The notes beneath the pieces were generated by a model. The model ran no database searches and had not been told where the DNA came from. It was given only the letters and a program-made list of their open reading frames with translations. DNA of 64,000 bases from Azolla caroliniana (taxonomy: Eukaryota > Plantae > Polypodiophyta). A program made the translations under genes and the position numbers. Shown here piece after piece: positions 1 through 35,487 of this stretch. The stretch lies in assembly GCA_043228905.1 (NCBI GenBank), contig JBHGNT010000005.1, positions 21,948,001 to 22,012,000 on the forward strand, in the 5' to 3' direction. Each line of letters opens with the position of its first letter. Positions within the stretch are counted from its first letter, which is position 1.

Positions 1-1393
1 GTGGCTCTTTGACTCATTAGTGACTCCCTCTCTCATGTATGCATCAGCGGTTTGGGCCCCAGGACTACCATCTTTCATGTGGACGCAATTAGAGAGACCA
101 TTGGTGATGATGTTATCACGCCAACTCCGAAGCAAATCGTCGGTCCCACATGACATTATTAGGGCTGAGTTCACTCTACCCCCTATGTTAGTAGAAGCAC
201 TTTTTCAACTGGTAGTCTTTATACACAGGATACATAACCAACCACTTGATAGAATATCCCACCAAGCCTTTAAGGCTTCTCGAGCATTGTATGAGTCCGG
301 CTATACTAGCTCATGGTATGGCATGATGGTGAGTTGGCTTCTTGCCAACGGTCTAGACATTACTAACCTCCCCCCCCTTAAGTACGACCACACGAATGAT
401 AACACTTTACTCTCTCATGAGGACCGTAATAAAGTAATACGCCAAGAAATATGGCAAATTTATACCCGGTATAAATGGATCACCCCACTAGAGCCACTCC
501 CATCTAAAATGCCGTACTATAAAGAACACTTTATGCACTTCTCTGAGTTAGGTTTTATCACGCGCCCAAAATATCTAGATGTATTCTTACCACATGCACT
601 AAGGGTTGCCATTGGTCAACTTAGAATATCATCTCACCAACTTGAGATTGAGAATGGACGTACTAATGGAGTCCCTAGGGAGGAAAGGATATGTAGGTTA
701 TGCCACATAGAGATAGAGGATGAGTACCATTTTACATGCAAATGCCCCACCTATGCCGAGATAAGGGCAAAATACCAAGACATACTTGGTTCCTCTCCCA
801 CCCTCCCTAAACTATTAGATACACTAGATATAAAGAAATTAGGTAGATACATCTTAGAATTGAAACACCACAGAGAGAACAAATTACAAAACGTTGATAA
901 TAATGTTGCTAATGTTTACCAACATATAACAAATGAAGTTTTTCAGGAACAGGGGGAGACGATGAATGTCGACACACCTGTACCACTCGGACTTCTCCTT
1001 GATGAAGCAGAAAATCAAAGAAGAACCAAACGCCCTCGGATGCCGGGTTTCAAAGCAACTCGACGAGATGTAGAAGCAATAAAGAAAATAAGGGAACGTG
1101 AACTACACCGCCTAGAAGCCATGGCTAGGGCACTCTATGCATCGGGACCATGGGTCACACCCACACCAAAAACTTTTGACCTCCCACTTCTTTTTGAGAG
1201 ACTTGGGTGGAAATGAGATTAGGCTTAGTGCAAAGTTTTGTACACTACTAGAACTTTCTTAGCTTAAGCTATTTTCTTTTATTTTTAGTTTTGATGATTG
1301 GATAAACACTCATCTTTTGTTGTAACCTATTTGTCTCATGGGCCAAATTTGGCCTTAGAAGACGTTAATATATCTTTCTTTCTTTCTTTCTTT
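1..1393 (+). mobile_element. RTE-X-like LINE, 3' end (5' part lies outside the window)
   Basis: ORF2 C-terminus, ~155-nt 3' UTR, then a (TCTT)n short-repeat tail at ~1373-1393 as expected for RTE-group elements. Confidence 0.7.
2..1216 (+). CDS. 3' part of LINE ORF2 (RTE-X-like), open from the window start; C-terminal CCHC zinc-binding region plus an ~110-aa tail
   Basis: The frame is open from position 2 (WLFDSLVTPSLMYASAVW). Motif LRISSHQLEIENGR...REERICRLC..EDEYHF..KCPTY matches the C-terminus typical of RTE-X-type non-LTR ORF2. No stops until TGA at 1214-1216. Confidence 0.75.
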   Translation, partial: WLFDSLVTPSLMYASAVWAPGLPSFMWTQLERPLVMMLSRQLRSKSSVPHDIIRAEFTLPPMLVEALFQLVVFIHRIHNQPLDRISHQAFKASRALYESGYTSSWYGMMVSWLLANGLDITNLPPLKYDHTNDNTLLSHEDRNKVIRQEIWQIYTRYKWITPLEPLPSKMPYYKEHFMHFSELGFITRPKYLDVFLPHALRVAIGQLRISSHQLEIENGRTNGVPREERICRLCHIEIEDEYHFTCKCPTYAEIRAKYQDILGSSPTLPKLLDTLDIKKLGRYILELKHHRENKLQNVDNNVANVYQHITNEVFQEQGETMNVDTPVPLGLLLDEAENQRRTKRPRMPGFKATRRDVEAIKKIRERELHRLEAMARALYASGPWVTPTPKTFDLPLLFERLGWK

Positions 1394-1426
1394 CTCTCTC
1401 TCTCTCTCTCTCTCTCTCTCTCTCTC
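1373..1426. repeat. (TCTT)n(TC)n microsatellite
   Basis: Read directly; forms the junction between the RTE-X-like tail and the 3' end of L1 copy A1. Confidence 0.95.
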
Positions 1427-3096
1427 TTTGGTGAAAACACACAATTATATTAATAAATGTGTGTGAAAAACACTACTTACAATACGTGTGACAATGGAGT
1501 ATGGGCACACACTACATGGGTAGTGGAACATGTTGAATTGCCAATAGGCAAGATGAACACTCCACCGAGGAAAGAATTTCCACTTGTTCCAATAAAGAAA
1601 ATTGCCACATTAGCACTCCCTTCAACTTTCGTAGATATGCTTTCACTCCATGTCTACCATCGAATACAAAAGCGTTGCGCATGTTCCAATTATGACGCAA
1701 TCCCCAATATCTCAGAAATAGGAAAACAATCTCCATCTCTGATTTTGGGTCAACCTATGTAAATTGTGCAAACACCCATTGTCTAGGTGGCAAATAACTC
1801 CGTGATAAAACTTGCCAAATTTGAGAAATGTAACTCCAAATTTGACAAGCAATTGGACATTGTATAAATCGATGAGTATTATCTTCTATCTTAACTGTGC
1901 AAAAGAAGCAGGTACCCGTTGCTAGTCCATGACGCTTTAAAGCTAATCCCAAAGGCAATCCTCCGATCAAAACTCTCCAAATGAATACCTTTGCAACAAG
2001 TGGCAATTTAGAATGCCAACTACATTGTAAGATCTGCCACCACCCATGATCAGATTTGTGTATTTTCCATTCTTCTTCAGCCTTAGATGATAACCATCCA
2101 AGAGACTCAACGGAACAATGATACGAAAGATTAGTAGTCACTTGTAACAATGGTGTTTGACCCCTTAAACTCCAATGAATCCACAGTTGTTCTCCTGTTT
2201 GTAGAGGTAAGGGACCTTGCATCAATGCAATATTCTGTAGTTGTTGCCAAATAAACCCATAATTAGGCGGGATGCGTAATAATTGTCGTGCTTCAATAAA
2301 CTCCAAAATTCTTTGAGATGGAACCTCAACTATATCTCCCACCTCTTTGACCCCCAAACGAAACAAACGATTAAATTGAGAATGCAATCTCTCCTTTCTT
2401 GGCCAACATAATAACTAAGAAGACACAAGTAACTCTTTTTGCAAAGAGTTACAATGCTCTCTACTAGATGATGGTTTCCATACACATAACAAGAGTGCTT
2501 CTTGCCATGAGGTAACTAAGTGTTGAACACATGAAGAACCCGGAATCCTAAGTGAAATACATCCATTCAGTAATTGCCACCATGAAGCCTTAATCGTTGT
2601 CCTCCCATATGTTAAACCTAGGCTTGTTCTCAATGAAATATCGAACAATAGATATCCATGGTTGTGAGTTTGAACACATGTCTTGTAATAATGAAAATCT
2701 ACGAGCCATCATATGCATAGATAAGTTCAATATTCCAACCCCCCCCCCCAATCGCTTAGGGGTTGCTAGATGATTCCAAGCAATCCATGTGATTCCCATC
2801 TTATCCCTCTTCTTCCACAACAAATATCGAAGAGGTTGCAAAACAAAATTCAACACCTTCTTTGTCCATGGCAATAATGGCAAGTAATATAATATCATGG
2901 GTTCCATAATACATTGTACAACCTTCAAGCGAACATGAAAGGGCCAAGATTGTGACTTCCAATACATGAACTTATCCCTCAACTTACTAGACATCCATTC
3001 AATCAATTGACCATTTGTAACATTCATTCCTAATGGATAGCCCAAGTGTCGAAAAATAGAGTCTTTCTTCACCACGGATCCTTGCCATCCTAAACA

Positions 3097-4134
3097 TTAC
3101 AAATCCCTTTCAGTGCATGATATGAGACTAGACTTCCTCCAATTAATATGTAATCCGGAAGCCAATGCAAACTGATTCCACACAAGCATCCCCTTCTCAA
3201 GATTCTCCCGTGAGGCTTGTAAAAACATGAAAGAATCATCCGCCAAAGCTTGTGCTACTATTTGCCCTCCGGACGGAAGGTGCAAACCCACAATGTCACC
3301 ATTTATTGCAAGTCTTGATAGCATCACTAACAAACGATGAGTAACAATAGCAAACAACAATTTGCTAAGAGGGCATCCTTGACGAACAGATCTTGTGAGG
3401 GCAATATTTGATGTAACTCCCCGATTAAGCATTACTCGAGACACTGTATCTTGTCCTAATAAAAATATGAGGCGAGACATACGAGGTCCAAAGCCCATTG
3501 TATGCATTAACCCAGAAACAAAAGACCAATTAACATGATCATAAGCTTTCTCCAAATCTAATTGCACCATAATCAATTCTTGATGAGTGTTCCGAGCATA
3601 ATCCATGGCCATTTGAACGTTCAACACATTATGCAATATATTTCTACCTGCAATAAAACCATATTGGGCGGGGTGTATCAACTTTGGCAAATACTTTTGT
3701 AATCTATTTGCCAAGACCTTCGTAAATATCTTGTACAACCCCCCCATCAAAGAAATAGGTCTCCATTGATGAAATGACTCAAGAGATGCCACCTTTGGAA
3801 CTAGTTTAATTAGACCAATCTTCCAAGCTTGAGGCATACAACTAGAATCCCAAGACTGTTGAAACATCAAAGTCAAGGGCCCCTTTAAAATGTTGGAATA
3901 TCTCTTAAAAACTTCATTTGTCAAGCCATCCCAACCAGGGCTCTTACCACTAGGAAGATGCCTTAAAACTACATCCACCTCATCCTCAGTGAAATCCACA
4001 TCCAATTCATGACTAATGAGATCATGCACAATACATCCAACCACATCATAAAACTCATGACGTGCTCTACTCACCTCTTCTGTCATTAACAATTGTGGAC
4101 CAATCAACTCCTTAAGGTAATGAAGACATGTCAA
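3097..4134 (-). pseudogene. LINE ORF2 reverse transcriptase domain (copy A1)
   Basis: KSPGWDGL, WRPISL, QYGF, DLEKAYDHV, RQGCPLS, LADD motifs. Confidence 0.9.
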
Positions 4135-34300: not shown

Positions 34301-35153
34301 TAACAATTAAGGATGCTATGTTGGTGTCACAAAGAAGATTAATGGTTTTTCGAACAATCAGATCAACATTTCGTATTCCAAAACGTTATACCTTTATTTG
34401 GGATAAGTTGCAACAAATACTATCTTCGTATGAGCCAATTCCTTATTTAGATGGGCGATCTCAAGAGCTTGATTGGAGGTTTGTTGGAAATAAGAGATTG
34501 ACTATGATCTCAACAAATGTTGCTTATCACACATTGATTAACAAACTTAAGTGGTTGGAAGAAAGGGTTATAAAGATATGGGGGTTTCATAAGCCCATTA
34601 CTTGGTGGCTTCATGTGATCAAGGTAGGTTGGTGTTCTCGATTAATGCTACGAGCCAAAGTATTTGTTTGGAGAGTTATGATTGGAGCTTTACCATTGGG
34701 GGATGCATTAAAAAAAGAAACATTACTAAAGGATTGTGTTTCTTTTGTTTCGTAGAATTGGAACATAGTAGGCATCAATTTATTTCCTGCTCGATGGCAA
34801 GGATGGTTTGGAGGTGTATTAGTTTAGGGTGGATGTCTCTAACCGGAGTACGTCTATCTTCCTTCAATTGGGTTTTTGCACATATGGAGAACAATGAACC
34901 AATGCCTCATTCTCAAATTATTTTTGAGTTCTTGAGGTATTGGGGGCTATGGTTCAATTGGAATATGCGGAATGCCTTCATTTTTTATTCGCAAGTGGGG
35001 GTGAGAAAATATGTTCGAAAGTTAAAAGGACTTCTTTTGTGGCAATTGACAGTGCTAGAGAAGTCACGAAATCTCAACCAGGAAGAGAGAGAACTCTGCA
35101 AGGTTACATATCATCATATTCGCCATTTGAATTGGTGTGTAGGGTGGCATTGA
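31305..35153 (+). pseudogene. LINE ORF2 (APE endonuclease, RT, zf-RVT), broken by stops and frameshifts
   Basis: MNITTWNVRG, GDFN, SRLDR, SDHFP, QLDIEKAYD, RQGCPVSP, LADD, CFFC..EH..HQF..C. Confidence 0.92.
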
Positions 35154-35264
35154 GTTTGGTGTCGTAGTTTTCTTTAGATCCCTAGATAGAAGGGGTTCTA
35201 TAGTTTGTTGTAAGTTAGTCATGGTGGTGTTTTTTCTTTCGTAATGAATGCCATTATTTACGAA

Positions 35265-35487
35265 AGAGAGAGAGAGAGAGAGAGAGAGAGAGCTTAACAC
35301 AGAGATAAAAGATTGTATATTACATTAACCAAAAATACTTCCAATAGTAACTAAGTTACAATGGGTTGGTTTAAATACCAACTAAACTAGGGCAGATGCC
35401 CTTTCTACTATTTACAAAACTAACCTGGTATAACCATGAGCTAGTGTGAAACCTATTACTATGGGAAGTTGAGTTCGACTCTCAACA
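35265..35487 (-). repeat. Proximal part of the 3' LTR of Copia element 2 (starts TGTTGAGAG at 35487); includes (GA)n at 35265-35292
   Basis: Follows a purine tract CGAAGGGGCG (35497-35488) on the minus strand; TATTTAAA TATA-like box at ~35370-35377. Confidence 0.7.

Follow-up and report, generated by a model that had tools for sequence, protein, structure and literature searches.

The window analysed here is a 64-kb stretch of the genome of the water fern Azolla caroliniana (64,000 nt; contig JBHGNT010000005.1, positions 21,948,001 to 22,012,000). It carries three copies, designated A1, A2 and A3, of long interspersed nuclear elements (LINEs) of the L1 group, together with other transposable elements and two host genes (Table 1). 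A first-pass annotation, made from the window sequence, had proposed that the three copies belong to a plant LINE lineage that targets (GA)n microsatellites. The present analysis examines this proposal using the copies themselves, related loci from other assemblies, a reverse transcriptase (RT) phylogeny and comparison with known target-specific elements.

Table 1. Features of the window (open reading frame, ORF; untranslated region, UTR; long terminal repeat, LTR; apurinic/apyrimidinic endonuclease-like, APE)
Feature	Position	Strand	Remarks
Unrelated non-LTR 3' end	2..1372	+	open 404-aa C-terminal frame, no Pfam match; faces A1 tail-to-tail over a TC tract
(GA)17(AAAG)5 tract	1373..1426	-	3' junction of A1
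LINE copy A1	1427..5687	-	5'-truncated within ORF1
A1 ORF2	5350-1512	-	APE endonuclease, RT, zf-RVT; interrupted by stops and frameshifts
A1 3' UTR			85 nt
(GA)14 tract	5688..5715	-	both A2 3' junction and A1 5' junction
LINE copy A2	5716..6353	-	638-bp 3' fragment; second family (87% to locus L016, 96% to locus L074)
(TG)8(GA)13 compound tract	6354..6395	-	5' junction of A2
CLASP gene	~11700-19880	-	TOG/HEAT repeats
A3 host, left piece	29637..29711	-	multi-copy repeat within a gypsy RT fragment (insertion at 29636); probably the distal end of a copia 3' LTR
(AG)9 tract	29712..29729	+	5' junction of A3
LINE copy A3	29730..35264	+	near full length, ~70 nt of 5' UTR gone
A3 ORF1	from 29943		CCHC zinc knuckle; broken
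A3 ORF2	31305-35153		broken
(AG)14 tract	35265..35292	+	3' junction of A3
A3 host, right piece	35293..35489	-	purine tract followed by TG (minus strand, at 35489); likely the start of a copia 3' LTR
DNA topoisomerase II gene	53545-60774	-	

Sense-strand (GA)n is present at all six junctions of A1, A2 and A3. The six junctions comprise five tracts at two loci because the 5' tract of A1 is also the 3' tract of A2, and independent 5' junction evidence within the window comes from A2 and A3. In element orientation, the A2-A1 locus reads (TG)8(GA)13 - A2 - (GA)14 - A1 - (GA)17(AAAG)5. The 3' ends read ...TTTTCACC-AAA-(GA)17-(AAAG)5 in A1, ...TTTACG-AAAA-(GA)14 in A2 and ...TTTACG-AAA-(GA)13-14 in A3; the (TTTC)n part of the tract at 1373..1426 is likely to be the tail of an adjoining LINE. 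The junctions and coordinates of the first-pass annotation, and the three to four A residues that it placed before the 3' GA, were all re-checked and are correct. The tracts at the LINE junctions account for five of the nine GA/TC runs of at least six units in the 64 kb, and only 0.13% of window positions (both strands, junction tracts counted in) have a run of (GA)>=6 ending within 3 bp upstream. Relative to the related loci L028 and L016, the first base of A1 falls in the final quarter of ORF1 and that of A2, a 3' fragment of the L016 family, close to where ORF2 ends. A3 has lost roughly the first 70 nt of its 5' UTR. The start points differ, and all three copies are therefore truncated at unrelated places; the annotation had recognised the unrelated positions but counted only two truncated copies. 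Its view that A1 and A3 are clearly diverged agrees with a DNA identity of 58-61% among the three.

The anatomy of the lineage is that of an L1-group element. A1 and A3 contain APE endonuclease (PF03372), RT (PF00078) and zf-RVT (PF13966) domains, and A3 ORF1 has a zinc knuckle (PF00098). All reading frames of A1 and A3 are broken, and the relative L028 retains an intact 476-aa ORF1 and 1277-aa ORF2. Thus the hallmarks of L1-group APE LINEs are present (an N-terminal APE domain, RT followed by a C-terminal CCHC zinc finger, and a separate ORF1), as are those of L1-type insertion (5' truncation, A tail and target-site duplication). The one clear duplication is a 13-bp purine-rich, non-GA direct repeat at both ends of L058; this and a 5' inversion in L026 are normal marks of target-primed insertion. 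Duplications lying inside GA tracts are not measurable. In an alignment to the human L1 endonuclease the catalytic positions N, E, Y, D-N, D and H are retained, and the fern clade is characterised by VEHK in place of QETK and by the loop FQSxQ(Y/H/F)xxTWSRLD, which is one residue longer than in human L1. Comparison of this loop between GA-associated and non-GA families found no residue that separates them. Summed depth of the A1 family in the contigs of one sequencing run (X1) is about 26,000 at the 5' part and 90,000-180,000 at the 3' end, with single contigs at 50-90; the family is high-copy with the usual 3' bias, summed depth being no copy number. The nearest relatives, 56-76% identical in the RT, are assembly-derived proteins and proteins of Adiantum nelumboides, beyond which identity is at most 36%. 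L016 (1-130) and L028 (85-215) have a near-identical initial 5' UTR despite distant ORF2s, which suggests exchange of UTRs or an assembly join.

Related loci were obtained by scanning a metagenome collection with a C-terminal alignment, and the best 80 of 147 confirmed relatives were used. They stem from 15 assemblies with adjacent accession numbers, probably from one study; more insertions were therefore sampled, within an unwidened taxonomic range. High-coverage contigs are collapsed, so that the two ends of a locus may come from different copies (L002 and L003, for example, have a common 5' flank and different 3' flanks), and since short-read assembly breaks at long repeats, GA junctions are likely to be undercounted. 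The 3' terminus, which is fixed in each family at what reads as about 15-20 nt past an A-rich hexamer, was contained in the contig at 54 of the 80 loci and was scored for (GA)>=4 within 15 nt. An automatic finder of the terminus gave GA at 24/54, which became 29/54 after hand correction of L022, L023, L053, L057, L064 and L072, against a background of 0.5% for GA; (TC)>=4 followed none of the 54. The run of A residues before the flank has a median length of 3 at GA sites versus 5 elsewhere (p=0.008), and the non-GA flanks are themselves 89% purine over their first 15 nt versus 53% further out.

At the 5' side, scoring covered the 42 loci whose boundary falls within the contig, 36 of them truncated and six near full length. 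Not counted were starts at contig edges, the duplicates L003, L050 and L060, L047 with its internal deletion, and seven long copies for which no second copy fixes the 5' end. Nine of the 36 truncated ends had (GA)>=4 within 15 nt and one had (TC)n (background 0.66%, p=2e-12), and at six of the 36 the run was a pure (GA)6-12. A self-encoded tail is therefore no explanation for the GA at these ends. Among near-full-length copies, 5/6 had 5' GA under the strict rule; by eye, a GA run also precedes L014, L027 and L028, and none precedes L011. Among filler-joints in public-run contigs (278 in total, 12 displayed), two of those displayed connect the TC tract with positions 2293 and 3444 inside A1, the pattern that additional truncated copies carrying a 5' repeat would produce. 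Loose ends in these runs mainly reflected differences between subfamilies and yielded no junction counts. The lone 5' junction with sense-strand TC, a (TC)17 run at L018:5-38, lies at a contig edge.

Over all scored junctions the orientation was 38 GA versus 1 TC (p=1e-10), and the random orientation relative to the repeat that could have refuted the proposal was not seen. Random insertion followed by selective retention, or by passive accumulation, near GA repeats would predict neither this bias nor repeats that touch the junction within a few bases. For Drosophila Waldo-A/B, which lie near CA repeats, the published interpretation is passive accumulation (PMC3812793); for the fern copies, retention or accumulation of this kind appears highly improbable. 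With families pooled, more than 20% of flanks are of one sequence type, a level used to define target-specific non-LTR families (PMC4494074).

Whether a tract preceded the insertion can be addressed at A3, the right host piece of which lies downstream of copia RT/RNase H remnants (35613-38162). In run X1 the host repeat reaches a summed depth of 3,300-5,900, compared with 53 for the unique A3 junction, and seven contigs of the repeat go into (GA)5 and then into non-A3 sequence (consensus agreement 0.68). Copies of the host repeat that lack A3 thus have GA at the same spot, and the GA run at A3 is likely to be older than A3. The 3' flank of A1 was also considered as a host repeat and was rejected, because this flank is the 3'-terminal part of a different non-LTR element, whose zinc-finger motif we take to be of RTE-like type. 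Its frame is still open, so it may have arrived later than A1. The family to which it belongs also occurs at 22626-23160 and 57954-58051 of the window and at L016, L021, L046, L068, L072, L073 and L080, with variable pyrimidine-rich tails (TTTC, TATC, TA), and may itself favour TC tracts. Free copies of this family lack a TC tract, and the A1 flank therefore gives no empty-site support; evidence of this kind comes from the A3 host repeat.

Taken together, these observations make it probable that the lineage inserts by target priming at polypurine/polypyrimidine tracts, with (TC)n as the best target, and that the repeat is duplicated at the 5' side. In such a scheme, the ORF2 endonuclease would nick the (TC)n strand of an existing tract and leave a TC-ending 3'-OH. 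Reverse transcription would begin near the boundary of 3' UTR and poly(A), leaving about one to five A residues where the site is GA and more where it is A/G-rich. A second nick 9-28 nt further into the tract would make the duplication itself (GA)n and place it at the 5' junction of truncated copies, and the 5' GA runs of 9-28 nt fit this spacing. Each insertion would leave two tracts open to new hits, and stacks like A2-A1 could arise in this way. That site choice resides in the endonuclease is our inference. In vitro, the sequence specificity of the human L1 endonuclease is only modest, and priming also influences where insertion occurs (PMC12809410); junction data alone therefore cannot separate choice by the nuclease from RNA-guided priming. 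The latter would take the form of homing, in which a read-through (GA)n tail of the element RNA pairs with nicked (TC)n and primes RT, the endonuclease being unspecific and the preference inherited through RNA. Homing would account for the strand bias, for the excess of 3' over 5' GA (54% versus 25%) and for poly(A)-tailed copies within the same families (L001 versus L002-L005), and it invokes a step already known to influence L1 sites. Nevertheless, the number of A residues before GA varies from 0 to 5 among close siblings (L014, L016 and L019 families) and is not inherited, the 3' ends stop at the fixed family terminus as a polyadenylated RNA would, and none of the 12 copies examined shows a non-GA duplication behind a carried GA tail. 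On this evidence RNA-guided homing seems unlikely.

Several observations weigh against insertion into pre-existing tracts. GA is absent from 25/54 3' ends, where A runs reach 12 nt, and from 27/36 truncated 5' boundaries, some of which may be later breaks or misplaced (shown for L026 and L071 only). L010, L011 and L031 have plain A tails and GA at 0/3 3' ends, and one family is mixed, with 3' GA in L001 and L006 and none in L002-L005. Among 12 two-ended contigs of low coverage, likely single-copy, GA occurs on both sides in two, at the 3' side only in four, at the 5' side only in two and at neither in four, and clean targeting predicts more with both. Empty-site support comes from one host family, one run and a 30-letter consensus. 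Five lineage copies (A1, L016, L046, L068 and L072) meet the RTE-like 3' end over a TC tract, and three of three free copies of that end have no tract. Finally, the modest specificity of the human L1 nuclease noted above bears on any assignment of the choice to the endonuclease.

Alternatively, the microsatellites could be made by the element itself, a conventional poly(A) L1 loosely directed to T-rich targets, its short A/G duplications and A tails mutating or slipping into (GA)n. Intermediate tails (A7-G-A6-G, (AAAG)n) in L003, L012, L028 and L030, the contigs with GA at the 3' side only and the tract-less RTE-like copies all fit such an origin, and microsatellites are known to arise from L1 and Alu tails (PMC3812793). 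However, the pure GA runs at truncated 5' ends are hard to obtain in this way, and the A3 host repeat has GA without A3. The second L1 lineage of the window (6838-8200 and 38936-41501, plus strand), represented by two copies 81% alike, has A/G-rich tails and GA at none of its four ends, a comparison confined to the window. An origin of the tracts from A tails is accordingly quite improbable. Insertion into existing tracts remains the better account, in the form of a preference: about half of the insertions lie at other polypurine sites, and strict site specificity of the R2 or Kibi type, with nearly all copies in the target, is not what the 3' ends display. The first-pass description of a sequence-specific lineage thus holds for a strong, strand-specific GA association and fails for strict specificity. 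Its placing of the 5' repeat outside the element stands for the truncated ends with GA. Three to four A residues in place of a poly(A) tail do not hold for the lineage as a whole, since A tails at non-GA ends show that it does use poly(A).

In a quick tree of 85 rows the lineage forms one clade (SH-aLRT 100) with Adiantum inside. A1, the A2-type families and A3 fall in three sub-branches, each with GA junctions, in agreement with the idea that the preference is old and heritable across subfamilies. In a careful RT tree of 30 rows (LG+G4) the lineage is supported at 100/100, on a long stem, as sister to L1s of the liverwort Riccia (93/96). A grouping with eight vertebrate L1-group hits, none of them a verified Tx1, Kibi or Koshi element, was rejected (approximately unbiased test, p-AU 0.015). 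The placement looked for in the first-pass annotation thus came out with plant L1s and apart from these hits, in a set without verified Tx1 members. The lineage is an L1-group LINE of plant affinity, a fern clade beside liverwort L1s, and membership of Tx1 is unlikely. The second L1 lineage of the window groups loosely with L1s of Chara.

Microsatellite-specific Tx1 families are indeed known from animals, as the annotation had said: Kibi of teleost fish uses (TC)n, Koshi (TTC)n and crocodilian Tx1 elements (TTCC)n or (TTTC)n (PMC4494074, PMC3812793), and the Tx1 clade is found in animals (PMC4494074). Like the fern lineage, these are APE-type non-LTR elements in the same class of repeats. Unlike Kibi, the fern lineage has a plant host, an RT that groups with liverwort and seed-plant L1s, and only a partial preference. 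In the fern lineage GA lies on the sense strand. Since the RT clade stands apart from the sampled vertebrate elements, the GA habit is likely to be convergent with that of Kibi. With land-plant L1s (Riccia, Pinus, Vitis and others) the lineage shares an ORF1 with CCHC motif, an APE-RT-zf-RVT ORF2, 5' truncation and A tails, and it differs from them in its GA sites, long stem and own endonuclease motifs; flowering-plant L1s are almost all poly(A)-ended (PMC3747384). Human LINE-1 has the same enzyme set (a match at the 25-30% level to the solved ORF2p, E 7e-62) and the same polarity, with the pyrimidine strand nicked and purines after the 3' end, nicking in the fern being inferred; it differs in its consensus 5'-TTTT/AA and long poly(A), compared with (TC)n and one to five A residues at the GA sites of the fern lineage. 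The plant elements found to target microsatellites are DNA transposons: SaTar Mutator-like elements (MULEs) and Micron miniature inverted-repeat elements (MITEs) stack in microsatellites without mutual interruption (PMC5907723), but these lack RT and APE.

Reported target specificity among APE-type LINEs occurs chiefly in the Tx1 and R1 clades of animals, and target-specific non-LTR families belong mostly to early-branching, Tx1 and R1 groups (PMC4640811). A plant LINE that targets GA or other microsatellites was not found in full-text searches of open literature, including the Adiantum genome paper (PMC9387920), a body of work that takes in few subscription papers and neither Repbase nor the original Kibi paper. 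The Chlamydomonas literature yielded a (C)n-targeting Penelope-like element and a centromeric Zepp-like L1, and no GA-targeting L1. GA targeting by a fern L1-type LINE therefore concerns a target class that is known from fish Kibi and was not found described for a land-plant LINE. More tentatively, (TC)n nicking may have evolved in a fern-wide L1 clade, including Adiantum, independently of Kibi, and may have been kept over families about 60% alike and lost in the L011/L013 branch; with each insertion duplicating its tract, the lineage would multiply its own GA targets across fern genomes.

The surroundings of the copies are rich in nested elements. Between 29480 and 38960 a gypsy RT fragment, the copia element with its LTR-like end, A3 and a second gypsy-type fragment cut by the L1 at 38936 lie within or against one another. 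The first-pass suggestion that GA repeats serve as a safe harbour would be compatible with such nested positions in the window. None of A1, A2 and A3 lies inside the CLASP or topoisomerase II exons, among those discernible; the CLASP exon has its best matches in Adiantum and Ceratopteris (63-66%), which points to a fern host, probably outside both genera. Near the start of CLASP, (CT)n/(GA)18 is followed by a long (TGTATG)n array (21174-21984), and at 44734-45560 a 93-bp four-copy tandem array lies beside a 320-bp palindromic element. A lineage copy at L024:3048-3255 terminates inside a copy of another family. The site is a brief A/G run within that copy, equivalent to the GAAGAGAGAGA stretch close to where A3 ORF2 ends, and the matching 5' part is absent.

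Preference for (GA)n in an L1 lineage of land plants would, if confirmed, represent an independent origin of the target class of Kibi. With the intact L028 and a branch that seemingly lacks the habit, a plant element becomes available for testing whether nuclease or RNA primer chooses the target. Sister families that differ in the habit would allow the residues that determine endonuclease specificity in a plant LINE to be mapped. The finding also bears on the origin of fern GA repeats and on the reliability of GA-repeat markers that lie beside the ends of high-copy LINEs.

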